Positions 5,129 to 57,199 of a stretch of 64,000 nt of DNA are shown here, one piece after another. A model generated the notes under the pieces. That model was not told where the DNA came from, did not search any database, and saw only the letters and a list, made by a program, of their open reading frames with translations. The DNA is from Campylobacterales bacterium (lineage in GTDB: Bacteria; Campylobacterota; Campylobacteria; Campylobacterales; Sulfurimonadaceae). Position 1 is the first letter of the stretch. Each line of letters starts with the position of its first letter. The stretch is from the NCBI GenBank assembly GCA_026390075.1, contig JAPLGP010000005.1, forward strand, positions 25,316-89,315, given 5' to 3'. A program made the position numbers and the translations under genes.

Positions 5129-5189
5129 ATAAGTTTTTATCAAAAAGAAACTTACATCTTATGGCATGTGGAAATATTTAACGAGATAT

Positions 5190-5300: not shown

Positions 5301-5381
5301 TTCATTTCCACATGCCAAGCTTTCATCTAAACTTTCAAAATAATTATTTGAGCTTCACTTTTTACAGCTACCACAACATCA

Positions 5382-30313: not shown

Positions 30314-30328
30314 ATCAAGTAGTAAGAT

Positions 30329-32527
30329 ATGAATCTCCATGAACTTTACCAAAAACTTCAATCTTTAGAATCAGAAAAACAATCTATTGAACTTGAGCTA
30401 CTTCAAACCAAAAAACTCATAGAACAGCTCTCACCTTTTAGTAAAGAGCAAAAAATAGAACTTTTTAAATCACTCTTTATTGGAAGAAGTGATGTATTTG
30501 CAAAATATTGGATGAGTAAAGATGGTCTTAAAAAAGGCTATGCACCTGCAACTTATAGCTTCAAAGGGGATGATTATATTCCAGTCAGCAATGAAATAAT
30601 CCAACAGCACCTTGAAGGTAAAATGAGAATCGGTACCTATGCAATCTTGAATCAAACAATGGCAAAGTTCTTGGCAATTGATTTGGATAAAGCAAGTTTT
30701 ATAGAAGATGCAAGAGCTATAAAAACTATTTCAGAGCATTTAGGCTTAAAACCACTTTTTGAAATCTCAAAATCTGGAAATGGCATTCATATATGGTATT
30801 TTTTTGAAACGCCTATCAAAACAAAAGAGGCTAGAAAACTAGGCGACATTATTATCACAAAAGCTATGGATATAGGCAGTGATATTGATATGGGTAGTTA
30901 TGATAGAATGTTTCCAAATCAAGACTTTGTAGCCCCTGATGCTCTTGGCAATCTCATTGCTCTGCCACTGCATTTTACTTCAAGAAGTGAAAATAAAACA
31001 GTTTTTATAGATATTGACACTATGCAGTCTTTTACAAATCAGTGGGATGTTTTACAAACTGTGACAAAAATTTCAATCTATCAATTGGTCTCTATTCTAA
31101 GAGAAAATATTGCAAATACTTTCTTAGAAGAAACGCTTATGCCTTGGGAAATTAAACAAGAGAAAGCACTTGTTTTTCCAAAAACTACAAAAGCTGTTTT
31201 ACATGATGCACTCTATATCCAAAAGAGCTCTCTCTCAAAAGAAGTCTTAAATAAACTCAAAAGACTAGCCTCTTTCGCAAATCCAGAGTTTTTCATCTTG
31301 CAAAATCTTAGAAAATCAACTTTTAAAACACCAAGAGTTATCACATCTTTTGATGTAAATGAAAGATATATCATAGTGCCAAGAGGATTAAAAGACAAAG
31401 TCATCAAACTTTTTAAATCTCATGATTCAAATCTTTTGATAGAAGACACAAGAGTTTTTAAAAATATAGATAAACTCAATTTTACACTTCAGCTTCGAGA
31501 TGAACAACAAACTGCACTTAATAAAATTTTAAAACTTGACTACTCAGTGCTTATTGCACCTCCTGGATTTGGCAAAACTGCTGTCGCTTCAGCTGTAATC
31601 GCCGCGCGAGGTGTAAATACTTTGATATTAGTTCATAAAACAAATCTATTAGATCAGTGGGTAAAAAGAGTGTGTGAGTATTTTGGTGTGGATGCAAAGA
31701 GTATCGGAAAACTTGGTAATGGCAAGAAAAAACTCACATCAAATATAGATATAGCAACACTTCAATCACTAAAAAATAGAGCCGAAATGATTGAAGAGTA
31801 TTCACAAATAATAATTGATGAAGTGCATCATATTCCAGCCGTGTCATTTGAAATACCGCTAAAAAGATTTAAAGGTAAATATATTTTAGGTTTGAGTGCA
31901 ACACCACTCAGACAAGATGGCATGCATCCCATCATGTTTATGCAGTGCGGCGATGTGGCATATGAAGCAAAAAGAGATGTTAAGAAAATTCATACTTTAA
32001 AAACTATACCTTCATCCTTTGAAGCACTGAGCTATGATTTTGCAATGATACTCAACGAAATGGTTGAAGATTTTGATAGAAATAATCTCATCATTCAAGA
32101 GATAATGAAACTTCAAAATAGAAATGTTTTGGTGCTGAGTGAGAGAATTGAGCATCTTAATATTTTATACCACCTCTTAAATGCAAAAAAAATAAAATCT
32201 ATACTCTTGCATGGAGGCTTGCCATCGAAAATGAAAAAAGAATTACTAAAAGAAGCAAATACCTCTTCGGTGATACTTTCAACGAGTAGCTATATTGGCG
32301 AAGGCGTTGATTTTTCACATTTAGATGCAATTGTGTTTACAATGCCTGTCTCATTTTCTGGAAGAGTTATCCAATATTTAGGACGCATAGGCAGAAACAA
32401 TCAAGAGTGTATCGCAATAGATTTTTTTGATGAGAATACTCCAATGCTCAGGTCTAGTTATCACAAAAGACAAAAAGGCTATAAGCAGATGGGATATGCG
32501 GAGATTGATAGTAGAAGATTGTTTTAA
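30329..32527 (+). CDS. AEP primase-like (TOTE-type) domain fused to SF2 helicase
   Basis: FLAIDLD, SKSGNGIHIW, GNLIALPL; APPGFGKT, DEVHH, SAT, QYLGRIGR. Confidence 0.85.
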   Translation: MNLHELYQKLQSLESEKQSIELELLQTKKLIEQLSPFSKEQKIELFKSLFIGRSDVFAKYWMSKDGLKKGYAPATYSFKGDDYIPVSNEIIQQHLEGKMRIGTYAILNQTMAKFLAIDLDKASFIEDARAIKTISEHLGLKPLFEISKSGNGIHIWYFFETPIKTKEARKLGDIIITKAMDIGSDIDMGSYDRMFPNQDFVAPDALGNLIALPLHFTSRSENKTVFIDIDTMQSFTNQWDVLQTVTKISIYQLVSILRENIANTFLEETLMPWEIKQEKALVFPKTTKAVLHDALYIQKSSLSKEVLNKLKRLASFANPEFFILQNLRKSTFKTPRVITSFDVNERYIIVPRGLKDKVIKLFKSHDSNLLIEDTRVFKNIDKLNFTLQLRDEQQTALNKILKLDYSVLIAPPGFGKTAVASAVIAARGVNTLILVHKTNLLDQWVKRVCEYFGVDAKSIGKLGNGKKKLTSNIDIATLQSLKNRAEMIEEYSQIIIDEVHHIPAVSFEIPLKRFKGKYILGLSATPLRQDGMHPIMFMQCGDVAYEAKRDVKKIHTLKTIPSSFEALSYDFAMILNEMVEDFDRNNLIIQEIMKLQNRNVLVLSERIEHLNILYHLLNAKKIKSILLHGGLPSKMKKELLKEANTSSVILSTSSYIGEGVDFSHLDAIVFTMPVSFSGRVIQYLGRIGRNNQECIAIDFFDENTPMLRSSYHKRQKGYKQMGYAEIDSRRLF

Positions 32528-34332: not shown

Positions 34333-34875
34333 ATGGCAATAGAACTAAAACAAATAGTAGAATGGTTAGAAGAACAAGAACTAAAATTTCAGCATATCCA
34401 AGAAAAGAGTGTAATTATTCTTATGTCTGGTAATGAAAAAGAGACACAAACTCATTTTATTCGTGCTAAAGATGATGGAGTTATTTTTGAGTGGACAATG
34501 CAATTGTTAGATGAAAACAATGATAATATAAAAATTAAAGATCACAAATATAGTATGCAAGTTCTTTCCCATATTCTTTATATAAACTACCAAACAAAAT
34601 TCGGCACATGGGAATTTGACCCAAGTGATGGAGATATTCGTTTAGCAGTAGAAATCCCACTCGAAGATGCTCTTATGACAAAAAAACAGTTCAACCGAGT
34701 ATCTGAGTATATGTTGGGTTATGGATCTTCATCTGCAAGCGAAATTAGACAGATACTAAAAACAGGCGAAGTTCCAAAAGATCCTAGTAATGCAGCTATG
34801 GTGGCTCAACTAGAAGCTATGCTAGCACAATTAAAAGGCAGTTCATCGAGTGCCTCAAGCAGTGATGGCATCTAA
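34333..34875 (+). CDS. YbjN-domain (T3SS-chaperone fold) protein
   Basis: INYQTKFGTWEFDPSDGDIRLAVEIP. Confidence 0.75.
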   Translation: MAIELKQIVEWLEEQELKFQHIQEKSVIILMSGNEKETQTHFIRAKDDGVIFEWTMQLLDENNDNIKIKDHKYSMQVLSHILYINYQTKFGTWEFDPSDGDIRLAVEIPLEDALMTKKQFNRVSEYMLGYGSSSASEIRQILKTGEVPKDPSNAAMVAQLEAMLAQLKGSSSSASSSDGI

Positions 34876-34929
34876 GAGATTTTTCTCTTAGACCATTAGT
34901 CATTTGAAATATTGTTATAAGGATTACTA

Positions 34930-37674
34930 TTGAGAACACTATTTTTAACGGCTAAAAAATTTGCTATTGATGCTAATGCATCTATTATTACGATTGAGTA
35001 TTTTAAAGAAGCACTTTCAACTTTAGAACTGATTGATTCAGATGCTAAAAAACTTGTATATGAATATCTCAATGTTAAGCCAAACTTGACAAGCAAAGTT
35101 TCAAATGAAAACATCGATGCAGCACAAAAATATAATGTTGTACCATTTGATGATGAAGTAAAAAAGTTTAAAGAGTATTTGGAATCACATGGCTTTGCTA
35201 TGACTTCTATAGTCTCTAAAATTTTTATCGAAAAAACAAATAACATGAAAACTGTTAAAGATAATATCGCTAAACTCCAAGAATCTCTCAAGTCACAAGT
35301 GCATGGACAAGAACAAGCGATAGAAGCAGTGTGTGATAAAATCGTTGAATCAAGCTATAACATAGCAACAGATACACCAAAAGCTATTTACTTTTTTCTC
35401 GGACCTCCTGCTACTGGAAAAACTATGCTCTCAAAGCTGATAGTTGATTATTTAGATGGATATGATGCTTTTAAGATTTTTGACATGACTCAGTATAGTA
35501 GTTCTAAAGATGGTTTTGGGCTATTTGGATTAGCAAAAGGGTACAGCGATGCAGGCGAAGGTAAACTCACAAAGTTTGTAAAAGAAAATCCTAAATCAGT
35601 TGTGGTTTTTGATGAGATAGAAAAAACGCATCCTGATGTACTTTCGAACTTTTTGATGATGCTCTCATCCGGCAAGGCAGAAGATGGTTTTAGCGGTGAA
35701 AGTATAGATTTTAAAAATACCATCGTTGTTTTTACATCAAACTTAGGCTCAGAACTTTACAACAACAGCGACTTTGTTCAACTCATGAAAGAAAATCCTC
35801 TTGAAGCCAATAGCACCATCATAGAAGCCATAGGCAGAGAAGAGCGAATCATAGATGGCAATCCAAGAAAAGCATTAAGCCCAGAGCTACTCTCAAGACT
35901 TTCACAAGGTCAAATTGTTCTTTTTAATAAGTTGCCTTTTGATGCTCTTATCAATATTGTAAAAACTAAGGTTTTAGAGGTTCAGGCTGGCTTCGAGTCA
36001 AATTGGGGAATAGATATTGAGTACGATACTTTCGATAGTATTATTGCTTTGTTACTACTTTCATTTGCACCTCAAATAGATGTGCGCAAGTTAAAATCTA
36101 AATTGCCTTTAGTGCTGTTTGATTTAGTAACGGATTTTATAAGAAAGAATGATGCTCTCGTCAGTAAGGTTAGTTTTAAAATAGAGAAACACTCCGATGA
36201 GCTTATACACTCTGAGCTTTTAGATCTAAACAGCGAGGCTCAAATAAAGTTTTTACACAACATATTTAGAAAAAATGAAACATTTAAATATAAACTCTCA
36301 GAGGATTTTGATTCTGGAGTGCTCACATATACATTTAGTGATGTTATGCGTAAAAAACTCTCAAGGTCGGTAGATTTTAGCGGCGAAGAAGGTTTAGTAT
36401 TTACCGTTCCATCTATCAGTTTTAATGATGTTGCCGGACACAGTGTTGCCAAAAAAAGACTAGGTGAAGTTATCAACATACTAAAAGAGCCTAAAAAACT
36501 AGATAAGTTTAAGGTGGGTGCACCAAAAGGGATGCTTCTTTATGGTGTTCCAGGAACGGGTAAAACGATGCTCGCCAAGGCATTTGCAAATGAAGCAGAC
36601 TTGCCTTTTATACAAACAACAGGCACTGAAATACTCGATATAGAACTGATGAAAAAAATCTTCAAAAAAGCTAGAGAGTATGCACCGGCTATAGTTTTTA
36701 TTGATGAGATAGATGCCATTGGTGCGCGTGATGGCTCTCGAATGGATATTATCATCAACCAGTTTCTTACCGAGCTTAATGGTTTTTCAGATAATGCGGA
36801 TGAGATGGTATTTGTCATAGCTGCAACAAATCTAAAAGAAAAAATAGACACAGCCATACTTCGCTCAGGCAGAATAGACCTGCATGTGGAAATAGATTCA
36901 CTCGACCGTGAAGCTAGAGAGTTTTTCATAGACAAGATTTTGAAAAAACCAACCTCCGGTGCATTTGATAAAGAAAAAATCTTAACATACACAGCCGGCA
37001 TGACGGGTGCAGACTTGGAAAAAGTGGCAAGAGAGAGTGCCCTTTATGTTTTTAGAAACTCTTTGGAGAGCATCACTCAAGAGATTTTGATAGAGCAGAT
37101 AAACACCATAAAATATGGCTCAAGAATCACGCACAAATCTATAGAAAAGCTAATGAAATCAACAGCTATACATGAAGCAGGACATGCTGTAATCTCAAGA
37201 GTCTTGATGCCAGAAGTGAAAATAGAACAGATAACCGTAGTTCCAAGAAACAATGCACTAGGGTTTGTCTCTTATGATCAAGATGCAGATTTGAGTAACC
37301 TAACTAGAAAAGATATAAAAAATAAACTCTGTGTCGCTTTTGCAGGACGAGAAGCACAGCTCAAAGAGTATGGGGAAGAAGGCTTCGACAGCGGAGCTTC
37401 AAGTGACTTAAACATGGCAACAAAGTATGCTCACTACGCCATCGCAACACTTGGCATGGGCGAAAGTACAGGTTATATAAATGTATCAAACTTTAAAGAA
37501 GATTCACTTTTTGACAAAGAGATAGAAACAGAACTAAAAGCGTGGTTAGATGAAGCACAGACTCAGACTAAAGAATTGGTTGAAAAACACTGGAACAAAA
37601 TCTCAGCACTTGCAAAACTGCTTGAAGAAAAAGAGATTGTGAATGAAGCAGAGCTTCTAACTTTGATGACATAA
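34930..37674 (+). CDS. Soluble hybrid: Clp-N-like domain, ClpB-D2 AAA, FtsH AAA, M41 metalloprotease
   Basis: GPPATGKT with DEIEKTHPDV; GVPGTGKT, FIDEIDAIG, RSGRID; HEAGH; no TM segment. Confidence 0.88.
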   Translation: MRTLFLTAKKFAIDANASIITIEYFKEALSTLELIDSDAKKLVYEYLNVKPNLTSKVSNENIDAAQKYNVVPFDDEVKKFKEYLESHGFAMTSIVSKIFIEKTNNMKTVKDNIAKLQESLKSQVHGQEQAIEAVCDKIVESSYNIATDTPKAIYFFLGPPATGKTMLSKLIVDYLDGYDAFKIFDMTQYSSSKDGFGLFGLAKGYSDAGEGKLTKFVKENPKSVVVFDEIEKTHPDVLSNFLMMLSSGKAEDGFSGESIDFKNTIVVFTSNLGSELYNNSDFVQLMKENPLEANSTIIEAIGREERIIDGNPRKALSPELLSRLSQGQIVLFNKLPFDALINIVKTKVLEVQAGFESNWGIDIEYDTFDSIIALLLLSFAPQIDVRKLKSKLPLVLFDLVTDFIRKNDALVSKVSFKIEKHSDELIHSELLDLNSEAQIKFLHNIFRKNETFKYKLSEDFDSGVLTYTFSDVMRKKLSRSVDFSGEEGLVFTVPSISFNDVAGHSVAKKRLGEVINILKEPKKLDKFKVGAPKGMLLYGVPGTGKTMLAKAFANEADLPFIQTTGTEILDIELMKKIFKKAREYAPAIVFIDEIDAIGARDGSRMDIIINQFLTELNGFSDNADEMVFVIAATNLKEKIDTAILRSGRIDLHVEIDSLDREAREFFIDKILKKPTSGAFDKEKILTYTAGMTGADLEKVARESALYVFRNSLESITQEILIEQINTIKYGSRITHKSIEKLMKSTAIHEAGHAVISRVLMPEVKIEQITVVPRNNALGFVSYDQDADLSNLTRKDIKNKLCVAFAGREAQLKEYGEEGFDSGASSDLNMATKYAHYAIATLGMGESTGYINVSNFKEDSLFDKEIETELKAWLDEAQTQTKELVEKHWNKISALAKLLEEKEIVNEAELLTLMT

Positions 37675-37720
37675 CCTGTCACACATATACGAAATAATAA
37701 AAACAAAAAAAAGGAACTCC
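37665..37720 (+). repeat. ~55-bp leader repeat with TGACA-N5-TGTCA palindrome and RBS, copy 1
   Basis: GATGACATAACCTGTCACACA...AAAAGGAACTCC; second copy at 41241. Confidence 0.85.
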
Positions 37721-37728
37721 TGAATAAC

Positions 37729-40700
37729 ATGAAAACACTCAGACTCTTCATAAGCTCAACATTCGATGATTTTAAGGATGAGAGAGATGCTATCCAAGCA
37801 GAGCTTATCCCTCATTTAACTAATCTATGTAAAAAATATAGTGTAGGTTTCATGCCAATAGACCTTCGCTGGGGCGTAGCAGCAGAAACACAACATGACC
37901 AAAAAACCATGGAGTTGTGTCTTAATGAGGTAAAAGCATGTAAAGGTGAACCAAATCCAGATTTTTTAATCTTAACAGGTGATAGATATGGGTGGATACC
38001 ACTGCCTTATATGATAGAAAAAGATGAGTTTGAGACACTTTATAGTTTTATCAAAGTTGCTGATAAAGAACTCATAAATAAATGGTATATGCTCGATGAG
38101 AACCAACTTCCAGCTTCATATATCTTGCAAAAAAGAGAAAACGAGTTTACTGACTATGACACATGGATGACAATTGAAAACAAACTAAGAACAATTCTGC
38201 AAGAGAGTATCACTCAAACCGACTACTCACAAGAGATAAAAGATAAATACTTCACATCAGCAACAGAATTTGAATATCTTGATTACATAAAAGATTTCAT
38301 AGGTGAAAAAAATGAAGCTCTCTTTGTTGTAGATAGAAAAATAAATAATAATGGCATCATTTCAGATAAATATTTTGATAACAACCAAAGACTTAAAAAA
38401 TTTAAAAAAGCTCTTCAGGATAAGGCACCAGATGAACACTATATCATCTCACATACGACACTTAAACCTAAAACATATCCTAAAGAGAAGGATGTAATTG
38501 AGACCTTACATGTGAACTCACTCATAGAACAGCTCAAAGAAAAACTCTCAGCCTCTATAGAAAAAGAACTTATTAGAGTAAGCGCTTATGACACAGCAAT
38601 CAGTGAACAAGAGATACACAGACTACATAAAAATTCCATCGCAAAAAACATCTTAGGTCGAGATGAAGAGATAAACGAGATTCAAGAGTATATAAATACA
38701 GATACATCCTCCAATCCATACATTATTTATGGAACTTCAGGTTTAGGAGAATCATCTGTCATGGCATGTGGAATTCTGCAAAGCGAAGAAGCACCCAACA
38801 AACAAGTGATATGTCGCTTCTGTGGCATAACCAAAGAATCATCAAGTACACGCTCGCTTTTGAAATCAATTTTCAAGGAGCTCGACATAGAACTTCCTGA
38901 AGAACAAGCAGAGCAAACAACAATGATGCAGGAGATGACAGCTAAAAAAGAGGACACCTTTGAACTAGATGTACAAGACGCATTTGTAAACATTAAGGAA
39001 GATGTCGTCATCTATATAGATGCATTAGACCAGCTCGGAGATAAAAGTAAATTAGAATGGCTCCCTTTTACCCTACCAAAAAATCTTAAAATAGTTCTCT
39101 CAGTACTCAAAGATGAAAACTATCAAGAAGACATCTATTATCATGATAAACTCGAAGAACTTGGATTTAACAACATGCACCCACTTTCAGTTCTCAGTAG
39201 TAGTGATATAGCAAAAAAAATTCTCTTAAACACCTTAAAACCTTACAATAGAACGCTTCAAAATAATCAAATAGAGTATATTATGAATCTATATAAAGAG
39301 ATAAACTCACCGCTTTATCTCAACATCATAGCCCAAGAAGCTCTACACTGGAGTAGTAATAAAAAAGATTTTGAACTAGCAAACACACAACAAGATGCTA
39401 TACATGAGTTTATAAAAAATCTAACAGAACTCTATCACCATAACAAACTGCTCATACAAAGAGTATTTGGTTATCTATTTGCTTCTCAAAACTCTTTAGA
39501 TGAAGCAATACTTTATGAGATACTCTCAAATGATGAAGAGCTTGTCAAAAACACTGAAAATGAATACCACACAAATGTCACAAAAAAACTTCCTATGTCC
39601 GTATGGGCAAGACTCAGCTATCAGATAGCACCGTTTTTAAAAGAGGATGAAAACGCGAAGATCAAGTTCTTTCACAGAGAATTTGGCGAGGGGGCAAAAG
39701 CACTTTACAGTGTAGAACTCTCACAAAAACTTCTAAATATCTTGCAAAATATGCTCGATGCAACGACACTAAATGATGAAAAAGAATCACTTACGGATAT
39801 TTATATCAAAACTCTTATGCATCAAAAATATCTTTATCCTGAGAGTTCTATTGAGGAACAGGTTCAATATTTAAGTACAAAAGTAAAAAGTGATGAAGTA
39901 TGGGTGAGAAATTTTATTACAAAAATTTTGCAATTAGGGGAAAAGTTTTATCAGCAAACTGAAGATAAATGGGCGAAAGCTTATAATCAATGCAATATGG
40001 ATATAGCTCAAGAACTTTATGACATAGATAAAAAATTATGGCAAGAGGTTTATATTAAAGCATTAAGAAATCTTGCACTTTCATTTTTAATAGAATATGA
40101 AGAAGAGGATGGATTTTTTTTATTGAATAAATTACAATTAATTCTTCAAGATCTCTATGTACAAGACGAAAAAATATGGCTAACTTATGCAGATGCTTTA
40201 ACTTTAAATGCTGGTGCATATAGTAAGAGTGACAATCGTTTCAAAGATGCAATTCAGTTTCAAGAAAAATCTTACAGCATTCTCAAACTTCATAAAGAAA
40301 GTTCTGAAAAATGGGCAGAATCTTATACAAGAGCTTTAAGTAGACTTGCAACGTTATATGCAACTGAAGGAAATTTTCAAAATGCAATACCATTGCAGCA
40401 AGAGGCATTAGGAATCCTAGAAAATCTATATGATACTAATAAAAAAAGATGGGCAGAGGACTATACAAGTACTTTAAAAAATCTTGGAGTATCTTATACT
40501 TTTATATCACAATTCAAAGATGCAATACAGTTATTAGAGTCATCTAAAGAAATACTAAAAAACTTATTTCAAGAAAATCGAATAAGATGGGCAGATGGTT
40601 ATACTACTTCATTAAACAACCTTGCATTGATATATAAGCAAACTGGAGCAACCTCTGAAGCGATGAAACTAGAAGAAGAATCATGGGAGATACTAGAAAA

Positions 40701-41229
40701 ATTATATAATAAGAATCCAAAACGATGGGTTGAGTCCTACTTATTAGCTTCCAACAGTCTTGCTATTTCATATTATAAAGCAAATTTTTTGGATAAAGGG
40801 GTAGAGCTACTTGGAAAATCATATTTGGTAGCAATCAAATTTTTGACTAAAAATCACCAATTGACGCAAAAAATCAAAGAGAATTATGATGAATCGCTGC
40901 GTAAAAGTAAAATTGATAATTTTGATCAAGATTTAACAACAATTTTATCTCTATCAAAAGCAATAGCAATGATGAATCATAGTTTTACAATAGATTTATC
41001 TCATTTATTAGAATCATTGGATTATGTGCAATTAAGCGGAAAAGCGTACATGGCTTTTATGGAAATTTTTGATTTTAACCCTCAACAGATTGAAAAAAGA
41101 GAAGATGTAAAAATATTGTTAGAAATGGCAAAAAATCATCCAAAAATCCCATATACTCAAGACTTTAAATCTCTTATAGAACAACTCAAAGAGTTATTCG
41201 TGGATGAGAAGATTTGTAGATTGAGATGA
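37729..41229 (+). CDS. DUF4062 + STAND/NACHT-like NTPase (Walker A K-to-E) + TPR + Clp-N-like C-terminus
   Basis: RLFISSTF.DF, IDLRWGV, GTSGLGES, IYIDALDQ, FFHREF, about 6 degenerate repeats. Confidence 0.82.
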   Translation: MKTLRLFISSTFDDFKDERDAIQAELIPHLTNLCKKYSVGFMPIDLRWGVAAETQHDQKTMELCLNEVKACKGEPNPDFLILTGDRYGWIPLPYMIEKDEFETLYSFIKVADKELINKWYMLDENQLPASYILQKRENEFTDYDTWMTIENKLRTILQESITQTDYSQEIKDKYFTSATEFEYLDYIKDFIGEKNEALFVVDRKINNNGIISDKYFDNNQRLKKFKKALQDKAPDEHYIISHTTLKPKTYPKEKDVIETLHVNSLIEQLKEKLSASIEKELIRVSAYDTAISEQEIHRLHKNSIAKNILGRDEEINEIQEYINTDTSSNPYIIYGTSGLGESSVMACGILQSEEAPNKQVICRFCGITKESSSTRSLLKSIFKELDIELPEEQAEQTTMMQEMTAKKEDTFELDVQDAFVNIKEDVVIYIDALDQLGDKSKLEWLPFTLPKNLKIVLSVLKDENYQEDIYYHDKLEELGFNNMHPLSVLSSSDIAKKILLNTLKPYNRTLQNNQIEYIMNLYKEINSPLYLNIIAQEALHWSSNKKDFELANTQQDAIHEFIKNLTELYHHNKLLIQRVFGYLFASQNSLDEAILYEILSNDEELVKNTENEYHTNVTKKLPMSVWARLSYQIAPFLKEDENAKIKFFHREFGEGAKALYSVELSQKLLNILQNMLDATTLNDEKESLTDIYIKTLMHQKYLYPESSIEEQVQYLSTKVKSDEVWVRNFITKILQLGEKFYQQTEDKWAKAYNQCNMDIAQELYDIDKKLWQEVYIKALRNLALSFLIEYEEEDGFFLLNKLQLILQDLYVQDEKIWLTYADALTLNAGAYSKSDNRFKDAIQFQEKSYSILKLHKESSEKWAESYTRALSRLATLYATEGNFQNAIPLQQEALGILENLYDTNKKRWAEDYTSTLKNLGVSYTFISQFKDAIQLLESSKEILKNLFQENRIRWADGYTTSLNNLALIYKQTGATSEAMKLEEESWEILEKLYNKNPKRWVESYLLASNSLAISYYKANFLDKGVELLGKSYLVAIKFLTKNHQLTQKIKENYDESLRKSKIDNFDQDLTTILSLSKAIAMMNHSFTIDLSHLLESLDYVQLSGKAYMAFMEIFDFNPQQIEKREDVKILLEMAKNHPKIPYTQDFKSLIEQLKELFVDEKICRLR

Positions 41230-41240
41230 TTAGTTTAAAA

Positions 41241-41294
41241 GATGACATAACCTGTCACACACATGCGAAACAATAAAAACAAAAAAGGAACTCC
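41241..41294 (+). repeat. ~55-bp leader repeat, copy 2
   Basis: Near-identical to 37665-37720. Confidence 0.85.
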
Positions 41295-41297
41295 CAA

Positions 41298-44200
41298 ATG
41301 AATAACAAAAAAACATTCCGCCTCTTCATCTCCTCAACCTTTAACGACTTCCGAAGAGAACGAGAAGTTTTACAAACAAAAGTATTTCCACATGCCAAAG
41401 AGTACGCTTCAAGCAAAGGTTACACTTTTCAACCCATAGACCTTAGATGGGGAGTAAGCAACGAAGCACAGCTTGACCAAAAAACATTAGAGCTTTGTCT
41501 AAGTGAAGTACGAGCATGTAAAAGCCATATACATCCAAACTTCTTGATTATGATAGGAGATAGATATGGTTGGGTTCCACTTCCTTATGCTATAGAAAAA
41601 GAAGAGTTTGAAACATTAACTGCACTCATGACTCAAAGTGATAAAGAAGCTGTTTTAGAATGGTATAAACTAGATAAAAACCAACTTCCAGCTTCTTATA
41701 TCCTAAAAGAGCGAAGCAATGAGTACAAAGTATTTGAAACCTGGGGAGCAGTTGAAACAAACATAAGAACAATCTTACAATCAGCAGTAAATAACTCAAA
41801 CCTAACCGAAGAACAAAAGCGCAAATACTTCCTCTCAGCAACAGAAGCAGAGGTAGAAGAGGGAATCATCCCTTACATCCAACCCACAAAATATCAAACA
41901 GATGAACTCCTAAACAAAAACAGTTCACTGCATACAGTTGACCCAGAACACATCTTTGGTTTCTTTAGAGATATTGACAAATCAACTCAAACAGAAGATA
42001 AGTTTATTCAAGAGGACTACAATGAAGCTCAAGATTTTAAAGAAAGGGTCAAAGCTGAACTACTAGAAAATAATATTCTTCATGCAAAAACAACTCAAGT
42101 AGATAAAGAGAAATTAGAAGAAACCTATCTTACAGAGTTTGAAAAAAGAATGACAGAGTTCTTAGAATCTCAAATAGATTCTCAAAAAGCAAAAGAGACA
42201 GATGAAAAACTCACACCCTTACAAATAGAACTCCAAGCCCAAAGCTACTTCGCACAAATAAAAAGAAAAGACTTCCTCGCACAAGAGAGTCTAAGAGAGA
42301 CAATAGCAAACTATATCTCAGATAACAACCAACAACCATTTCTCATCTACGGAGCATCAGGAAGAGGAAAATCCTCTCTCATGGCAAAAGCAATCGAAGA
42401 AGCAGAAGAGTCTCTTCAAAAAAGAGTAATCTACCGCTTCGTAGGAGCAACTCCATATTCTAGTTCAAGTAAAGAGATACTGACAAGTATATTTGAAGAG
42501 TTAGGCGTAGATGTAAGAAGTGAGCAAGAAAAAGAAGAAAATGAACTCACTTTCAACTCAAATGAAAAACAAGAATCATTTGAAGAGTTTAGCTATAGAA
42601 TAGAAAATGAGTTTATGAATCTAAAAGAACATATAACTATTTTCATAGACGCAGTAGATCAACTAGGAAATGATGATAATTTCCTATGGCTGCCAGAAAC
42701 TTTGCCATCAAATCTAAAAATAATCATTTCAGCACTAGATGATAAAAAATACGAAGAGGACAGCAAATATTTTACAAACCTAAAAACTCAAACTCAAACT
42801 CAAACCATTTACGAGATACCAGAATTTTCACAACCAAAAGAACTTCTAAAAGCTCTTCTCAAAAAAGAAGAGAGAACTCTCCAAACAAATCAAGAGAACT
42901 ACTTCTTAGAACAGTTTAAAACCGCCAACTCACCTTTGTACATAAACGTTGCAACTCAAGAGTTAAAAAACTGGAAAAGCTATGACACTCACCAAGAGCT
43001 AGAATCAACACAACAAGGAATCATAAAAGAGTTTGTAGAAAACTTACATAAAGTTTACCATCACGATAAAGAGTTTGTTCATAAAGTGTTAGGATACCTC
43101 TATGCTTCAAGAGATGGACTCAGTGAGAGCGAACTTCTTCAACTCATTGCAACAGATAAAGAATTTATCCAAAAAATGGCACCAGAGACATGGCATGAAA
43201 ACCCAAACAAAGAACTCCCTCTGGTTCACTGGTCAAGACTTCAAACACAACTCAAACCTTTTCTAAGTTCAAAAACTCAAGATGGTGAAGAACTCATGTA
43301 CTTCTTTCATAGAGAGTTTGAAGATGTCATAGCAAAACTTCCAAACCAAAGAGAAGAACATGAAGCGATTATAAAAGCTACTCAAAAATTGATAGAACAA
43401 AACCAAGACAAACCATTCGACTCTAACAGATGGGGGAAACTTTATGCGACACTTATTACAGAGTATGAACTAAGATACCAAGATAAAGAGAAACAAAAAG
43501 AGTTTGCAGAGTTTATTGCTATCATTAATGATGAACCGTGGATTCAAAAGTGTGTAAGTAATCTCACAGAGATTGGTTATACACATATGATATACAATCG
43601 AATGCGAAAAGCAATGGCATATCAAGAGAGTGTTTTATATGCAACTAAGGCACTTTATAAATCTGACAAAGAGAGATGGGCAAATAATTACACCACGGCC
43701 CTAAATAATTTAGCCTTATCATATACAAATGTAAACCGCCAAAATGAAGCGATAGCACTCCAAGAGAAGAGTCTTGCAATCCTTGAAGAACTTTATAGAT
43801 CTGACAAAGAGAGATGGGTGGAGTTTTACACTACATCTCTAAATAATCTAGCCTATTCATATACAAATGTAAACCGCCAAAATGAAGCGATAGCATTCCA
43901 AGAGAAAAGTCTTGCAATCCTTGAACCGCTTTATGCATCCGACCAAGAGAGATGGGCAAAGGATTACACTTTAGCTATGGGTAATCTAGCCACTTCATAC
44001 GCAAATGTAAACCGCCAAAATGAAGCGATAGCATTCCAAGAGAAAAGTCTTGCAATCCTTGAAGAACTTTATAAATCTGACAAAGAGAGATGGGCAAATA
44101 ATTACACCACGGCCCTAAATAATTTAGCCTTATCATATACAAATGTAAACCGCCAAAATGAAGCGATAGCATTCCAAGAGAAAAGTCTTGCAATCCTTGA

Positions 44201-45419
44201 AGCACTCTATACATCCGACAAAGAGAGATGGGCGGAGCTTTACATCAAAGCTCTGATTAATCTGGCAACTTCATATAAAAACGTAAACCACATAAACGAA
44301 GCAATAACGCTTGAAACTAAAGGTATTTCAATCCTTGAAGTACTTTATGAAATGCACTCTCAGAGATGGGCAGAGGATTACACCACGGCTCTAAATAATT
44401 TAGCCTTATCATATACAAATGTGAACCGCCAAAATGAAGCGATAACGCTTGGCGAGAAGAATCTTTCAATCTGTGAAACACTTTACACATCCGACAAAGA
44501 GAGATGGGCGGAGCTTTACATCACAGTTCTAAGTAATCTTGCAGTTTTTAGCGGAAAAATCAACCACATAGAGGAAGCCATAACACTTCAAGAAAAGAGT
44601 CTCACAATTCTTGAAATACATTACAAAACGGACCCTCAAAGATGGTCGGAGCTTTACACCAGAGCTCTAAATTCTTTAGCTTTCTTATATATGAATGCAA
44701 CCCGCCAAAACGAGGCAATAACACTTCAAGAAAAGAGTCTCACAATTCTTGAAATACATTACAAAACGGACCCTCAAAGATGGGCGGAGCTTTACACCAC
44801 AGTTCTGATTAATCTTGCAAATTCTTATGCAAATGCAAACCGCCAAAATGAAGCAATAGCACTCGAAGAGAAAAGTCTTGCAATTCGTGAAGCACTTTAT
44901 TCATCCGACAAAGAGAGATGGGCGGAGCTTTACACCAAAGCTCTGGATAATCTTGCCGTTACTTTTTATGACCATGGGGACAAAGAAAAATCTTTAAAAT
45001 TATTGAATGAAAATTATAAAATTCATAAAAAACATTATGGAGAAAATGATGCAAGAACTTTAGAAGTAATATCAAGCATAGAGATTGTTCAAGGCAAACA
45101 AATAAAAACTAGTGTTGTAAACGCAACATTTACAGATTTACTTTATCTTTCAAAGTTTATAGCACAAACAAAGGAACAAAATGAAATTTGTGAAACTAGT
45201 TTTATATATGCGCTAGGTTGTATAGAATTGAATGAACAAGCGAAACAAATTTTTTCACAATTGACTAACCTTGAAGAATTGGGTAGATATGAAGGCGCTC
45301 AACAATATATAGAACAGGTAAAAAACACTCCAAAGATTTTATATAGTGAAAAGTTAAAAGGAGTTGTTAAACAGCTTCAAGAGATATTTGGTGATAAGCC
45401 AATAGGGACATTGAGATGA
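41298..45419 (+). CDS. DUF4062 + STAND/NACHT-like NTPase + 10 TPR-like repeats + Clp-N-like C-terminus
   Basis: RLFISSTF, IDLRWGV, GASGRGKS, IFIDAVDQ, FFHREF. Confidence 0.85.
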   Translation: MNNKKTFRLFISSTFNDFRREREVLQTKVFPHAKEYASSKGYTFQPIDLRWGVSNEAQLDQKTLELCLSEVRACKSHIHPNFLIMIGDRYGWVPLPYAIEKEEFETLTALMTQSDKEAVLEWYKLDKNQLPASYILKERSNEYKVFETWGAVETNIRTILQSAVNNSNLTEEQKRKYFLSATEAEVEEGIIPYIQPTKYQTDELLNKNSSLHTVDPEHIFGFFRDIDKSTQTEDKFIQEDYNEAQDFKERVKAELLENNILHAKTTQVDKEKLEETYLTEFEKRMTEFLESQIDSQKAKETDEKLTPLQIELQAQSYFAQIKRKDFLAQESLRETIANYISDNNQQPFLIYGASGRGKSSLMAKAIEEAEESLQKRVIYRFVGATPYSSSSKEILTSIFEELGVDVRSEQEKEENELTFNSNEKQESFEEFSYRIENEFMNLKEHITIFIDAVDQLGNDDNFLWLPETLPSNLKIIISALDDKKYEEDSKYFTNLKTQTQTQTIYEIPEFSQPKELLKALLKKEERTLQTNQENYFLEQFKTANSPLYINVATQELKNWKSYDTHQELESTQQGIIKEFVENLHKVYHHDKEFVHKVLGYLYASRDGLSESELLQLIATDKEFIQKMAPETWHENPNKELPLVHWSRLQTQLKPFLSSKTQDGEELMYFFHREFEDVIAKLPNQREEHEAIIKATQKLIEQNQDKPFDSNRWGKLYATLITEYELRYQDKEKQKEFAEFIAIINDEPWIQKCVSNLTEIGYTHMIYNRMRKAMAYQESVLYATKALYKSDKERWANNYTTALNNLALSYTNVNRQNEAIALQEKSLAILEELYRSDKERWVEFYTTSLNNLAYSYTNVNRQNEAIAFQEKSLAILEPLYASDQERWAKDYTLAMGNLATSYANVNRQNEAIAFQEKSLAILEELYKSDKERWANNYTTALNNLALSYTNVNRQNEAIAFQEKSLAILEALYTSDKERWAELYIKALINLATSYKNVNHINEAITLETKGISILEVLYEMHSQRWAEDYTTALNNLALSYTNVNRQNEAITLGEKNLSICETLYTSDKERWAELYITVLSNLAVFSGKINHIEEAITLQEKSLTILEIHYKTDPQRWSELYTRALNSLAFLYMNATRQNEAITLQEKSLTILEIHYKTDPQRWAELYTTVLINLANSYANANRQNEAIALEEKSLAIREALYSSDKERWAELYTKALDNLAVTFYDHGDKEKSLKLLNENYKIHKKHYGENDARTLEVISSIEIVQGKQIKTSVVNATFTDLLYLSKFIAQTKEQNEICETSFIYALGCIELNEQAKQIFSQLTNLEELGRYEGAQQYIEQVKNTPKILYSEKLKGVVKQLQEIFGDKPIGTLR
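43659..45038 (+). repeat. Ten 138-bp (46-aa) coding tandem repeats
   Basis: Unit such as KSDKERWANNYTTALNNLALSYTNVNRQNEAIALQEKSLAILEELY; 138-bp spacing checked (43662 vs 43800). Confidence 0.92.
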
Positions 45420-45441: not shown

Positions 45442-46014
45442 TTGGCAAAAAGGTTATCTATGTCACAAGAAGAACAATTTAAAATTGAAAAAATAAAAGG
45501 TGATTTTGCTGAGCTTATTTGTAAGCATCATTTTGAATATATGGGCTTTAAAATGGATAAAGTCGGAATCGAAGATTTGTCACCCTCTTTTGCAAAACTT
45601 AGCAGTAGTAACAATGCGGTAACATCTTTGAAAAAACTTATTCAGTATATGCCGGATTTTTTAGCAGTTTATCCAAGCTTAGGTTTGGCATCTTTTATTG
45701 AAGTAAAGTACAGAAGAAATATAACAGATTTGCATCTAGTAGAGTTCTCAAAAGAGCTGCATCTTAGATATGAAAATGTAATGAAAGATGGCATTCCTTT
45801 ATATTTTTATCTTGTAACAAATAAAGCGCCGTATGTCTATATCATGAAAGCCTATGCTTTGAAGCACAAAGAACAAACCGGCGGGTTTTATAGTGTAGAA
45901 GATAATGCTTTAAATAATTTGGTGTTTTTCCAATCTAAAAACAAAAATGCCAGCTTTAGTGAGGCGTATAAAGACTGCATTAAAACTGCAATTGTTGAAA
46001 TTTTGGAGGCATAA
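45442..46014 (+). CDS. PD-(D/E)XK nuclease-like protein
   Basis: AELIC...MPDF...FIEVK. Confidence 0.65.
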   Translation: MAKRLSMSQEEQFKIEKIKGDFAELICKHHFEYMGFKMDKVGIEDLSPSFAKLSSSNNAVTSLKKLIQYMPDFLAVYPSLGLASFIEVKYRRNITDLHLVEFSKELHLRYENVMKDGIPLYFYLVTNKAPYVYIMKAYALKHKEQTGGFYSVEDNALNNLVFFQSKNKNASFSEAYKDCIKTAIVEILEA

Positions 46015-46016
46015 GT

Positions 46017-47996
46017 ATGAGAGTAGGTTTAATTAAAAATCAGGAGATTACGCCTGAAATACCACTCGTAGATGTTAAATTTACACACTCTCTTTGTATC
46101 GGTCAAACAGGGAGTGGCAAGACAAGTTCATTTGTTTATCCAAACCTTTTAAACAGGCTTAAGCTTGGTCATGGGGTGCTGTTTTTTGACATCAAAGGGA
46201 GTGAGCACAAGGCTATAAAAAAACTGGCAAAAGATGTAAACAGACTGCAAGATGTTTTAGAAGTAGGCAAGCCTTGGGGTGAAAATATAAATATTTTAAA
46301 AGATTTTAACAGTAGAACTTTCTCTACACTTTTAACTTCACTTGTAGGCGATCCAAAAGATGCAGGACAAAACGCATATTTTTATAACGCTGCGATTGCG
46401 CTAGGTCTTAATATTTTCAACATCTTAAAGCTTTGTTCTATCATTTCAAAAGAGATAAGAGAGTTAGGCATTGAAGTTTCTTTTGAACTGTATGAATTTT
46501 TTAGTTTTAGCGATTTGTACAAGGCAAGCTTGGGTATCAATAATCTTTATGATTTTTTGCAAGAGAAAAAAAGTTTTCAAGATGCTGTATTTGAGATTAT
46601 AAAAACAGATGCCGCCTTGTATCTTGGTAAAAATAAAGAGCTATATAAAAACATTGTTTTAAATTATGCCAATCTCAAGTCGCAATTAGCAAACTTACAA
46701 AAATATGATGTTCCGCAAAAAAAGAGAAATGACAGAGAGAAGTTTGACCTTGCGCTTATTCCTGTTATCCATTCACTCTCAGAAGCTTTTAGTTTTATGG
46801 TAACACCGGCGGCAAAATATATCTCGCAAAAAGATAATCCATTTGATATTGTTCAGAGTCTGCAAGATGGCAAAATCGTAATCATTAATGTGAGGGTAAT
46901 ACCCGATGCCATTTTAGAGTTGATGCTAGATCAGCTTTTTGAAAAGCTTATAGACTTAAATCTGGTTCGAGAGGAGCACAGGCATCCTACCTCTATTTTT
47001 ATAGATGAAGCACAAAGACTTATCAATAAGAATATTCCCTTAGATATATTGAGAAGTTCAAAAATAGATGTTATTTTGGCTGTTCAAAGCGAACTTCAAC
47101 TCATCAGTAAGTTTGGTTCCAAAGAGGACTGGCAGCAGATATCAGTAAATATCGCCGATAAATATGCCTATAGGTCATCCTTCTTCGGTGGCGACCATCT
47201 TGCCTCATTTTACATCGACACCGCAACATTGAATCCTTTTGAATACGCAAAAGAGCATGATACAAATATTAAAAAAGCGATACCAATTTTTATGGACAAA
47301 GATGAACTTGACTTTGTTGAACTAAAGTATCAGCATGAGGTTTTAAAGTTATCAGGTCTTACAAAAAATGAGCTGTTTCAATATGATGTCACTCATTTTG
47401 AGAATGAAAGAGAAGTGCTGATTTTCAATATAAAAACAATGAAAAAGCAGTATAAGAAGCTTTTTACATCATTTGAAGATAATCTAATTTTTTCCATCAT
47501 TGAAAAATTTGTTCCACTTCCTTTGGAAACACTGATAAATAAAGTCGGTATGACTCTTTCTCAAAATCTATGGAATCATATATATAATGAGTTTCATATT
47601 TGCAGTGAAGAGCAGTTTAATAAACTATTCATTGGAGCCTTTCCTTCACTCGTAGAAGTATGCAATTTCTTATTATTGAAACTTGACACTGATGATGAAG
47701 AGTATGAGGATATCTCCTTGAACTTGCTTGGTCAGGTGATGGAAAATCACTATGATGATATAGAGATACTCAAAGATGAAGAACTTGATGAGGACGATAT
47801 ACCTTTTGATGAGCCACAAGGAACTATCATCAGTATAAATTCTAAAAAAGCACAGCAAAAGTTAGAAAAAGTAATAGATGTGATGGGGTTTTTATATTAT
47901 GAAGCGGATAGTATGAGCTGTCTGCTTTTTAAAGATGCAGATAAAAACACTAACAAAGATAAAAGTCTAATAGAGGAAGAAGAAAGTGGATTTTGA
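46017..47996 (+). CDS. VirD4/TraD-like P-loop ATPase with acidic tail
   Basis: IGQTGSGKT, FFDIKG, IFIDEAQ, LAVQS. Confidence 0.75.
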   Translation: MRVGLIKNQEITPEIPLVDVKFTHSLCIGQTGSGKTSSFVYPNLLNRLKLGHGVLFFDIKGSEHKAIKKLAKDVNRLQDVLEVGKPWGENINILKDFNSRTFSTLLTSLVGDPKDAGQNAYFYNAAIALGLNIFNILKLCSIISKEIRELGIEVSFELYEFFSFSDLYKASLGINNLYDFLQEKKSFQDAVFEIIKTDAALYLGKNKELYKNIVLNYANLKSQLANLQKYDVPQKKRNDREKFDLALIPVIHSLSEAFSFMVTPAAKYISQKDNPFDIVQSLQDGKIVIINVRVIPDAILELMLDQLFEKLIDLNLVREEHRHPTSIFIDEAQRLINKNIPLDILRSSKIDVILAVQSELQLISKFGSKEDWQQISVNIADKYAYRSSFFGGDHLASFYIDTATLNPFEYAKEHDTNIKKAIPIFMDKDELDFVELKYQHEVLKLSGLTKNELFQYDVTHFENEREVLIFNIKTMKKQYKKLFTSFEDNLIFSIIEKFVPLPLETLINKVGMTLSQNLWNHIYNEFHICSEEQFNKLFIGAFPSLVEVCNFLLLKLDTDDEEYEDISLNLLGQVMENHYDDIEILKDEELDEDDIPFDEPQGTIISINSKKAQQKLEKVIDVMGFLYYEADSMSCLLFKDADKNTNKDKSLIEEEESGF

Positions 47997-48342
47997 GCGC
48001 GGTGATTATGCACGATTTCGTAGTGGTTATATTTTTGAGGTTGGCAGAATGGATGAAGGTTTTTTATATACAGATGAATGGGATTATTCTATCGAGTACT
48101 GGAAACCATACGCAAGACGCGATTGCATATTATGGAAGCCGAACGAGGATGAAGTGTGCTTATTTTGGAATAAAGATGCGCAATATGCAGTTATTGGCAA
48201 ATTTAAAGAGATGGCAGGTTCGCAATATTTGACACTGCATGGCGAAGTATATGAAAAAACACAGCCATATCTTTTCCAAGTACCATATTTTTTACAAGAT
48301 AAATACGGGTTGCCAAATAGTACTTTGAAATTCTTGAGCTGA
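47986..48342 (+). CDS. Hypothetical protein
   Basis: 118-aa ORF overlapping the upstream gene end. Confidence 0.6.
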   Translation: MDFERGDYARFRSGYIFEVGRMDEGFLYTDEWDYSIEYWKPYARRDCILWKPNEDEVCLFWNKDAQYAVIGKFKEMAGSQYLTLHGEVYEKTQPYLFQVPYFLQDKYGLPNSTLKFLS

Positions 48343-48603: not shown

Positions 48604-48846
48604 ATGGATTTTAGAGAGTTTGGAAATGAGATGGCGAAACTACGAAAAACTAAAAATGTATCGCAAAAAGATTTGAGTGATGATTTGCATATTTCAAGAG
48701 CTACAATCAGCAGTTTTGAAAACGGTGGAAGCGTGAATATTGGGTTTAAAAAAGTTTTGCAGATAGCGGACTATCTTGGATATGAGATTGCACTCAAAGA
48801 AAAATCAGATTTTCCTGTTTTTGAGGAGATACTTAGTGGAGAATAA
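48604..48846 (+). CDS. hipB: HipB-like XRE HTH antitoxin
   Basis: HTH SQKDL..ISRATISSFENG; TTGACA-17-TACTAT promoter at 48545-73. Confidence 0.8.
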   Translation: MDFREFGNEMAKLRKTKNVSQKDLSDDLHISRATISSFENGGSVNIGFKKVLQIADYLGYEIALKEKSDFPVFEEILSGE

Positions 48847-49996
48847 TCTACTTGTTAAAGTTCAAGGCGATTTTGCTGGAAAAATGGTGCTTGAAGATGG
48901 TGAATATATCTTTAGTTATCAAACAGAAAATAAAGAGAATTTTATCTCTCTCACAATGCCATTAAGAACGAAAGACTATGTCCATACGAAACTCCATCCG
49001 ATTTTTGAGATGCATCTTCCTGAGGGTTATCTGCTCTCCATCATCAAAAAACATTTTGCAAAAATTGTAAAAACAGATGATTTTGGACTGTTGCAGCTTA
49101 TGTCACCTTCCATTGCTGGAAGAGTAACTTATGAGTCTCAAAAAAATAATCATAACTCCACTTTAACTCTTGATGAGCTTTTACATCCAAAAAGTGAAAA
49201 ACTTTTTGATGAGCTTGTTGAACGGTTTGCTCTTTCTTCTGCACTCAGCGGAGTTCAGCCAAAAGTATTGGCAAAAGTGCAAAACAAAGCGACTCTCAGG
49301 CTCGAACAATATATTGTAAAATCATGGGGAGAGGATTACAAAGAACTCTCTCTCAATGAGTACTATTGCATGAAGGTGGTGCAATATGCCGATGTACCAA
49401 CGCCTGAGTTTTATCTCTCAGATGATGAGAAGCTTTTTATCATGAAAAGATTTGATATTTTAGACGATGGCGAGAGTTTGGGCTTTGAAGATATGTGCGT
49501 ACTTCAAGCAAAACAGCGAGACGATAAATACAACGGCAGTTATGAGCAGATTGCAAAAACGATTCAGACCTTTGTATCAGGTAAAAATAAAAAAACTGCC
49601 TTTATTAACTTTTATAAAATGATTGTTATAAACAATCTTTTACAAAACGGTGATGCACATCTTAAAAACTTTGGGTTACTTTACCGTAACATTCACGATA
49701 TCTCGTTGGCACCTGCTTACGATGTTGTATCCACAACAGTTTATATAAAAAATGATGTTCCGGCACTTCATCTTTTGGGAAGTAAAAAATGGTGGGACAA
49801 AAAGTTTCTCCTACGCTTTGGCATGGAAAGTTGTAATTTGACAAACAATGAGGCAAATAAGTATTACGAGGAGTGTTTGAGTGCCATGAACAAAGTTGCC
49901 AACGAGATAGCACTTAGAATAAAGCATGAGAAAAATAGTGATAAGCGTGAAGTTTTAGAGAAACTTTTAAATTTAACAAATAAGGGAAACCATTGA
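48836..49996 (+). CDS. hipA: HipA-family kinase toxin (likely GTG start 48836)
   Basis: SGVQPK, KRFD, FEDMC, NGDAHLKNF, LAPAYD; GAGGAG RBS. Confidence 0.9.
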   Translation: MENNLLVKVQGDFAGKMVLEDGEYIFSYQTENKENFISLTMPLRTKDYVHTKLHPIFEMHLPEGYLLSIIKKHFAKIVKTDDFGLLQLMSPSIAGRVTYESQKNNHNSTLTLDELLHPKSEKLFDELVERFALSSALSGVQPKVLAKVQNKATLRLEQYIVKSWGEDYKELSLNEYYCMKVVQYADVPTPEFYLSDDEKLFIMKRFDILDDGESLGFEDMCVLQAKQRDDKYNGSYEQIAKTIQTFVSGKNKKTAFINFYKMIVINNLLQNGDAHLKNFGLLYRNIHDISLAPAYDVVSTTVYIKNDVPALHLLGSKKWWDKKFLLRFGMESCNLTNNEANKYYEECLSAMNKVANEIALRIKHEKNSDKREVLEKLLNLTNKGNH

Positions 49997-57178: not shown

Positions 57179-57199
57179 ATATGACAGGTTGAGTCATAT
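57179..57199. promoter_or_regulatory. Palindromic operator-like site
   Basis: ATATGAC-AGGTTGA-GTCATAT; the reverse strand matches TGACATAACCTGTCA at 13/15. Confidence 0.6.

Follow-up and report, generated by a model that had tools for sequence, protein, structure and literature searches.

Why are a soluble AAA+ zinc protease and a small YbjN-like protein encoded next to two NLR-like STAND proteins, and would the protease serve these as effector, as regulator or only as a neighbour? This question is raised by positions 34333 to 45419 of a 64,000-bp stretch of contig JAPLGP010000005.1 (hereafter the window), from a Campylobacterales bacterium of the Sulfurimonadaceae with a genome of 2.4 Mb and 33% GC. 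Four co-oriented genes were present there on the + strand, as a first-pass annotation made from the sequence had described. Gene 1 (34333-34875, open reading frame (ORF) of 180 aa) encodes a protein with the fold of YbjN and type III secretion chaperones. It was followed by the two-ring protease (34930-37674, 914 aa, TTG start; ORF, Pfam and NCBIfam) and by two NIR(DUF4062)-STAND-TPR proteins identified with Pfam, ST1 (37729-41229, 1166 aa) and ST2 (41298-45419, 1373 aa). The intergenic gaps were 54, 54 and 68 nt. Overall, the locus is a composite conflict locus, most likely directed against phages. The link between the STANDs and the protease was judged to be real from co-location, clean controls and a domain common to both sides, and we infer from there an interaction of the domains, a direction of control and an anti-phage role. 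The reading that we prefer, with a probability of about 40%, is that the protease and its YbjN-like partner control the NADase STANDs post-translationally via this common domain.

Homology between the two sides was found at their ends. The last approximately 100 residues of ST1 and ST2 were homologous to the first approximately 88 residues of the protease (hhalign 95.5%, E 1.5e-8, 83 columns). In the protease, these residues form an N-terminal helical domain (residues ~1-88, 34930-35193, + strand), for which the AlphaFold model was a five-helix bundle with a predicted local distance difference test (pLDDT) score of 92. The counterparts, located by profile and hidden Markov model (HMM) matches to protease N-termini, were residues 1066-1166 of ST1 (40924-41226, + strand) and residues 1275-1373 of ST2 (45120-45416, + strand), the latter ending in GDxxIGTLR-COOH. 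An HMM of the STAND C-domains matched residues ~3-86 of every protease of the family and nothing else among approximately 3,800 local ORFs. In the opposite direction, an HMM made from protease N-termini matched ST1 at 3.3e-7 and ST2 at 1e-3. A profile of both STAND C-termini had 41 representatives among 1.84 billion proteins, mostly DUF4062-STAND-TPR or DUF4062-STAND-ankyrin proteins. All six assessable carriers of STAND or TPR type lay within 7 kb of a protease gene, and a TPR protein of Candidatus Sulfurimonas baltica, also near the protease, carried the domain at its N-terminus. The homology of these termini makes a physical link between STANDs and protease plausible.

The common domain was absent from NCBIfam and PADLOC, and the protease N-domain had no Pfam match, with no Clp_N match even at E 10. 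When the N-domain model was compared with PDB structures by Foldseek, the most consistent of the weak matches were with ClpC/ClpC1 N-domains (probability 0.6-0.8, template modelling score ~0.4, E ≥ 0.12), and histone folds were matched as well. As none of these PDB matches was significant, the reading of the domain as Clp_N is unproven. In a further protease locus (L167), a 703-aa protein (3275-5386, - strand) was found to have three tandem copies of the domain (residues 249-331, 507-592 and 609-681) and is encoded in a three-gene operon of Pfam-less proteins divergent from the protease.

A protease domain copied to the end of a STAND could also be an integrated decoy. The C-domain would then be a bait which is bound by a phage inhibitor of the protease N-domain and thereby triggers the NADase, in the manner of a plant-NLR-like guard. 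The location of the copy at the C-terminal, sensor end of the STANDs agrees with this, as do the autonomy of the protease and YbjN-like pair and the addition of STANDs in only some lineages, both described below. In addition, mycobacterial ClpC2, a separate protein with a module resembling the ClpC1 N-domain, was among the weak structural neighbours, which indicates that copies of such N-domains occur elsewhere. ClpC2 binds the same ligands as ClpC1. In this case the TrkA_N-RyR membrane proteins encoded downstream in the window might be downstream components responsive to NAD(H) or ADP-ribose. However, the C-domains and the protease N-domains were only ~17% identical and each group had its own conserved terminus, the STAND C-domains sharing the extreme end ..IGTLR, so the domain copy appears ancient and not that of a tracking mimic. 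We know of no phage inhibitor of the protease, and the results do not tell a decoy from simple docking. A decoy was regarded as very improbable.

The two STANDs are related paralogs with 37% identity. Pfam searches showed DUF4062 (PF13271) in ST1 (7.7e-11) and ST2 (2.3e-10), an NPHP3_N-type STAND NTPase in both and TPR_10/TPR_12 repeats at 3.8e-13 in ST1 and 8.3e-49 in ST2, in line with the two NLR-like proteins with TPR arrays annotated earlier. DUF4062 corresponds to NIR, a TIR-like NADase. It serves Avs2, further NLR-like proteins and the Swarozyc, Vulcan and Vesta systems as N-terminal effector, with NAD+ depletion shown for Avs2 and these three systems, and it also occurs in human TEP1 (10.64898/2026.09.04.749371; 10.64898/2026.05.01.722283). 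Residues 5-99 of ST2 matched the crystal structure of the TEP1 NADase (11gz) with an E value of 3.7e-13, which became 3e-19 with a profile of eight NIR domains. NIR-type NLR-like proteins work as single genes (2026 NIR preprints). Judged by their sequences, ST1 and ST2 are complete sensor-switch-effector proteins of the described kind.

The sensor and switch modules differed between the two proteins. A tandem array of a 138-bp (46-aa) TPR unit was identified in ST2 with Tandem Repeats Finder (43650-44957, + strand, 9.5 copies, 75% matches) and is likely to be a variable sensing surface. The Walker A motif of ST2 was intact (GASGRGKS, 42351-42374), with DAVDQ as Walker B. The Walker A motif of ST1 was degenerate (GTSGLGES, 38731-38754), the P-loop Lys being replaced by Glu. 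This replacement was unique among the eight related STANDs compared, since ST2 and the six others keep GK[ST]. ST1 may accordingly be read as a candidate helper or regulatory partner of ST2. ST1, ST2 and gene 1 matched no PADLOC v2.0 family at E ≤ 0.01, hence no named Avs type.

The protease consists of the N-terminal domain, two AAA+ rings and a zinc peptidase, all on the + strand. Ring 1 is of ClpB-D2 type (35380-35904; Pfam AAA_2, residues 151-325, 2.5e-30), ring 2 is of FtsH type (36532-36897; Pfam AAA, residues 535-656, 2.5e-40) and the M41 domain (37153-37659; Pfam Peptidase_M41, residues 742-910, 3e-27) has HEAGH at 37171-37185. With NCBIfam, residues 93-396 aligned to the D2 module of ClpB (positions 535-822) at 130 bits (cut-off 1232), and residues 494-909 aligned to FtsH TIGR01241 at 4e-89 and 300 bits (cut-off 600). 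No transmembrane (TM) segment was found by hydropathy scan, the N-terminus being the soluble helical domain. Pfam, NCBIfam and the hydropathy scan together agreed with the anchorless joining of a second ClpB AAA module to an FtsH AAA and HEAGH protease that the first-pass annotation had reported.

The catalytic residues of the protease were well conserved. Across 15 homologs, H748, E749, H752 and D826 were invariant, Asp826 being the third zinc ligand. Ring 1 had Walker A GPPATGKT and Walker B VFDEIEK, with G158-T165 and D228/E229 invariant, and kept the pore-loop aromatic KG[Y/F/W]. In ring 2 both Walker motifs were intact. When ring 2 was aligned with the FtsH encoded in this genome and with five members of the protease family, the pore-1 loop MFVGVG proved to be missing through a six-residue deletion (residues ~568-575, ~36630-36650) and the pore-2 region to be shortened. 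The pore-1 loop deletion is a family-wide trait of the protease.

The genome encodes separate FtsH, ClpB and ClpA elsewhere. Clustered at 90% identity, the protease family comprised more than 2,300 clusters, from Campylobacterota (Sulfurimonas, Sulfuricurvum, Sulfurovum) and Gamma- and Betaproteobacteria (Amphritea, Parazoarcus), and the nearest relative was in Candidatus Sulfurimonas baltica with 88% identity. A scan of contigs with FtsH-core peptide patterns from the full-length alignment produced nearly all housekeeping FtsH loci and a sole relative, L001. Matches from tblastn searches of plasmids and phages were rejected as relatives: they belonged to generic ClpB-like genes or to another cluster (AAA, PIN, hypothetical, ClpB-like AAA, 4Fe-4S). 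That cluster, on Polaromonas pPNAP02 (L172) and a Moellerella plasmid (L173), is a conserved five-gene set in the order large AAA protein, PIN-domain protein, hypothetical protein, ClpB-D2-like AAA ATPase and 4Fe-4S protein. It shares only the D2-type AAA module with the protease and is a different system.

The product of gene 1 had been annotated as a YbjN chaperone. The fold was borne out, as the AlphaFold model (pLDDT 83) had the YbjN-family protein DR_1245 as its top PDB match (Foldseek E 6.6e-5, probability 1.0), followed by the type III secretion chaperones ExsC, SchA, SicP, SycE and CesT. The family assignment was not, since the match with Pfam YbjN PF10722 (E 0.025, 15.2 bits) fell below the gathering score of 22; precomputed YbjN matches of its relatives ranged from unmarked to faint. 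NCBIfam likewise had no match for gene 1 above threshold. The protein has a Ser-rich linker followed by a conserved C-terminal Gly-Ile. In the YbjN-like proteins encoded beside a protease, a Gly-Ile end (rarely Ser-Ile) follows a flexible or helical linker, and 12 of 14 aligned sequences ended in Ile, mostly in ...GI. This layout of linker and tail would recall the tethering tails of AAA+ adaptors. The conserved ends of the YbjN-like proteins (..GI) and of the STAND C-domains (..IGTLR) are as expected of docking or degron tails, and gene 1 is a candidate adaptor or regulator of the protease.

The first-pass annotation had suggested a neighbourhood survey, and a comparison of approximately 18 loci showed that the gene families co-occur at other loci in shuffled orders. 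YbjN-like homologs adjoined the protease in 13 loci (the window, L081, L082, L083, L085-L089, L164 and L167-L169), and in L103 and L104 a YbjN-like gene was also found beside more distant protease versions of 1,030-1,150 aa. The pair of YbjN-fold protein and protease is thus the constant unit. Several protease loci were without any STAND, and the pair itself occurred without a STAND in L168, L082, L083 and L089. In L168 it stood alone between znuABC and secG/frr, a housekeeping setting. In the Parazoarcus and Amphritea loci (L082 and L083), the pair was accompanied by another YbjN-like paralog and by a ~445-aa protein. This second locus type spans 12757-15274 in L082 and 12751-15221 in L083; only the first YbjN-like paralog ends in Gly-Ile there and the ~445-aa protein is Pfam-less. 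The presence of the pair without STANDs indicates that the protease has a STAND-independent function and is not simply a STAND effector.

These results bear on the earlier proposal that TPR sensing and STAND oligomerisation recruit the protease as effector. In its present form, the clustered C-domains of oligomerised STANDs would recruit and activate the protease, which would then degrade host or phage proteins as an executioner or second effector, much as CARD-NLR proteins of bacterial gasdermin systems recruit CARD-proteases. A physical connection is plausible from the homologous termini, which represent an adaptor-like domain common to STANDs and protease. The domain was also found on other possible effectors or scaffolds, namely ~445-aa TM proteins and the 703-aa three-copy protein. 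The protease has kept an intact M41 site and intact Walker motifs in both rings, and there is precedent for NLR-like proteins and proteases that are joined by homotypic adaptor domains (PMC10312443; PMC13236601). The effector role fared less well. The STANDs already carry a NIR NADase as effector, so they have no need of the protease as one, and the pair occurs free of STANDs, also in the housekeeping setting. The domain lies at the sensor end of the STANDs and not at the N-terminal effector end, and the TM carriers that were examined were not linked to a protease. Recruitment of the protease as executioner was considered somewhat unlikely.

NIR-STANDs were identified by or near the protease in four lineages with at most 55% identity: the window with L081 and L165, then L169, L090-L092 and L164. 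The gene orders were protease followed by STAND (window and L090-92), STAND, protease, YbjN-like gene and TrkA_N (L164), and convergent (L165). In L081 and L169 the STAND was 3-8 kb from the protease with two to several genes between them. This co-location spans protease lineages of 35-88% identity. As controls, approximately 45 loci of ordinary ClpB (~600 kb) contained no partner family, and within the 2.4-Mb genome of the window each partner family was single-copy, all within 20 kb. In L164 (9346-12241), the protease homolog was split into ORFs of 93 aa and 818 aa at a run of seven G; a frameshift or misassembly of this metagenome contig is the probable cause. A gene of the N-formylglutamate amidohydrolase (FGase) family was observed in two protease loci (L164, 3884-4678; L167, 20713-21453).

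With respect to novelty, which had been proposed for the whole set, the outcome was divided: the genes do co-occur elsewhere, but half of the set belongs to the described class of NIR-effector NLR-like proteins. In another reading, the two halves would be independent neighbours, the pair being a self-contained proteostasis or defence module and the STANDs ordinary single-gene NADase defences that share an old mobile domain. The pair alone in L168, L082, L083 and L089, the ability of NIR-NLR-like proteins to function singly, the conserved upstream element of ST1 and ST2 described below and the adjacent STANDs without the common domain fit such an arrangement, as does the setting in a dense defence island that brings unrelated systems together. 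However, the same four to six families recurred together at 35-55% protein identity in differing gene orders and were absent from the ~600 kb of control loci. A very rare domain (41 of 1.84 billion proteins) was nevertheless carried by neighbours of the protease which itself carries it. Independence of the two halves was considered unlikely.

The preferred reading, in which the pair controls the STANDs, would work as follows. ST1 and ST2 would use the TPR arrays for sensing, and oligomerisation with NAD+ depletion would follow. The YbjN-like protein and the protease would be coupled to them through the common domain, either by direct contact of N-domain and C-domain or by a dimeric YbjN-like protein binding both copies. 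The protease would act on the STANDs after translation, and unfolding or degradation would silence the NADase in uninfected cells, or activated oligomers would be dismantled. The protease would then be a safety or reset device and not the primary effector.

Several observations weigh against this reading. The direction of control, whether the protease is a negative regulator, an activator or a co-effector, is unconstrained by the results, and the common domain could reflect shared descent only. STANDs beside the protease in L091 and L081 were searched and had no common domain, while the distant ~445-aa TM-protein carriers of the domain were not near a protease (L170 and L171). The survey of loci rests on approximately 18 loci. 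An FtsH-type ring without pore loops makes processive degradation uncertain. The NIR acidic residues were conserved (IEKxEFE after the RYGW strand and an S-A-T-E-x-E motif with E185 invariant in eight sequences), but the catalytic Glu did not map unambiguously onto TEP1 E1008 or KpSwz E97, the NIR alignment to TEP1 ending at residue ~100, short of E1008. Finally, ST1 and ST2 have a conserved upstream block of their own, which suggests that regulation separate from the protease is possible. The palindromic 15-mer TGACATAACCTGTCA was found 5' of ST1 (37667-37681, + strand) with an identical copy 5' of ST2 (41243-41257, + strand), within a block of ~45 bp which is ~90% identical upstream of two proteins that are just 37% identical. 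A looser TGAC-N7-GTCA match was observed at 57182-57196 near a WYL regulator gene; three matches of the loose pattern were reached in 5 of 100 shuffles, and only the ST1/ST2 palindrome pair was convincing.

The co-directional run of genes continued past ST2 with 45442-46014, 46017-47996 and 47986-48342, at gaps of 22, 2 and -11 nt. The transcription or functional unit therefore probably has more than four genes, and the functional unit may extend past those described above. Terminator and promoter scans of the locus gave no more than chance matches, from which no transcription units could be delimited. The first downstream gene (45442-46014, + strand) encodes a 190-aa protein with a PD...E-x-K-like motif (MPDF...IEVK), from which it is a possible small nuclease. 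It had no Pfam, PADLOC or NCBIfam match, and a blastp search showed a 56% homolog at the end of the S. baltica locus. The second (46017-47996, + strand) encodes a 659-aa VirD4/TraG/HerA-like P-loop ATPase (Pfam T4SS-DNA_transf 9.8e-6, TraG-D_C 3.8e-4), homologs of which were found with blastp and HMM in protease loci L164 (51%) and L167.

Further downstream, two TrkA_N-RyR membrane proteins with two TM helices each were identified by Pfam and TM scan (49993-53957, + strand; the first at 49993-51900 and the second at 51897-53957). Each combines TrkA_N, a Rossmann/RCK domain, with a RyR domain, and neither had a match in PADLOC or NCBIfam. Homologs of the first were found in L081 (75%) and L169. 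A homolog of the second stood directly after a C-domain STAND in L166 (55%), another was found in L164 (42%), and those in L090 and L091 (36%) overlapped the protease start. The TrkA_N-RyR proteins probably belong to the same functional neighbourhood. TrkA_N domains bind NAD(H), so a link of these proteins to the NADase output is conceivable. Directly 5' of the two genes were a HipB-like helix-turn-helix gene and a HipA kinase gene (48604-49996; PADLOC PDC-M03A, weak), and the starts and stops of the HipB-like, HipA and TrkA_N-RyR genes overlap. On the other side of the locus, an AAA_14/DUF4143 ATPase (PADLOC PDC-S01) followed by an AEP-TOTE primase-helicase fusion was found at 29120-32527, and a 44% homolog of the AAA_14 gene adjoins the STAND in L164. 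Generally, the surroundings were those of a defence island, with PDC-S01, PrimPol-helicase (TOTE), HipA, WYL and a type I S-subunit fragment.

NLR-like STANDs with NADase effectors, related to human TEP1, NWD1 and NPHP3, are a current focus of bacterial immunity, and the silencing or post-activation reset of such NADases is largely unexplained. The locus described here is a concrete candidate for such control and can be tested. If the connection between sensors and protease holds, it would define for bacterial NLRs either a new layer of regulation or a new adaptor for the recruitment of effectors, and would give a function to a large orphan protease family. The rare domain of ~100 aa would then also be a marker for further clients.

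Searches of PADLOC, NCBIfam and the literature showed no system of this composition, and the earlier statement that no named system was recognised agreed with PADLOC, where none matched. The STAND half is of a known kind, while no description appears to exist of the protease and YbjN-like half or of the hard-wired link that joins it to the sensors. As in NIR-effector Avs (PsAvs2; Le Mouellic et al. 2026) and Swarozyc (Osinski et al. 2026), ST1 and ST2 consist of NIR, STAND NTPase and C-terminal repeats, an architecture reported in these two preprints to deplete NAD+ on phage sensing. Unlike these proteins, ST1 and ST2 have an extra C-domain, form a tandem pair with one dead P-loop Lys and are linked to a protease/chaperone pair which is mentioned in neither preprint.

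The protease resembles FtsH in its FtsH-type AAA with the second region of homology and in its M41 domain with HEXXH and Asp ligand, but it has no TM anchor or periplasmic domain, carries an extra ClpB-D2 ring in front and has MFVG deleted. With ClpB, ClpA and ClpC it shares a D2-type ring with pore aromatic and an N-terminal helical domain possibly docking adaptors or substrates (cf. ClpS and MecA). In contrast to Hsp100 proteins, it has one Hsp100-type ring, no M-domain and no recognisable Clp_N, and its peptidase is fused, whereas ClpP is separate. Gene 1, with its small dimer-fold, flexible linker and conserved C-terminal peptide, recalls the ClpX adaptor SspB.

Two kinds of conflict system show a comparable logic. 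In bacterial systems of CARD-NLR, CARD-protease and gasdermin, an NLR-like protein and a nearby protease also share a small adaptor domain. Here the fold differs, the STAND carries the domain at its C-terminal end, and an AAA+ metalloprotease takes the place of a trypsin- or caspase-like enzyme. In addition, there is no gasdermin, and a NADase is part of the STAND itself. The MoxR-vWA FtsH ternary systems have MoxR and vWA partners and two FtsH-type AAA, the first inactive, with no M41 described (Kaur, Burroughs, Iyer and Aravind 2020; PMC7159879). They resemble the locus in their conflict context, in a protein that combines an FtsH-type AAA+ module with a further AAA+ module and in a proposed control of effector-complex assembly or disassembly (PMC7159879), but ring 1 of the protease is of ClpB-D2 type and looks active, and M41 is present. 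Membership in these systems was rejected because no MoxR or vWA domain was found among the genes at 28-57 kb.

Finally, PADLOC showed partial AAA matches of the protease with IetA, PDC-M37B, DolB and TRIP13 (1.8e-28 to 9e-11), each covering one AAA module. Identity with IetAS, Dodola, PDC-M37 or CBASS TRIP13 was excluded as their partners (IetS, DolA, PDC-M37A and HORMA/CD-NTase, respectively) are absent from the neighbouring genes. TRIP13 of CBASS, an AAA+ remodeller which switches an immune sensor off, provides a functional analogy for the protease.

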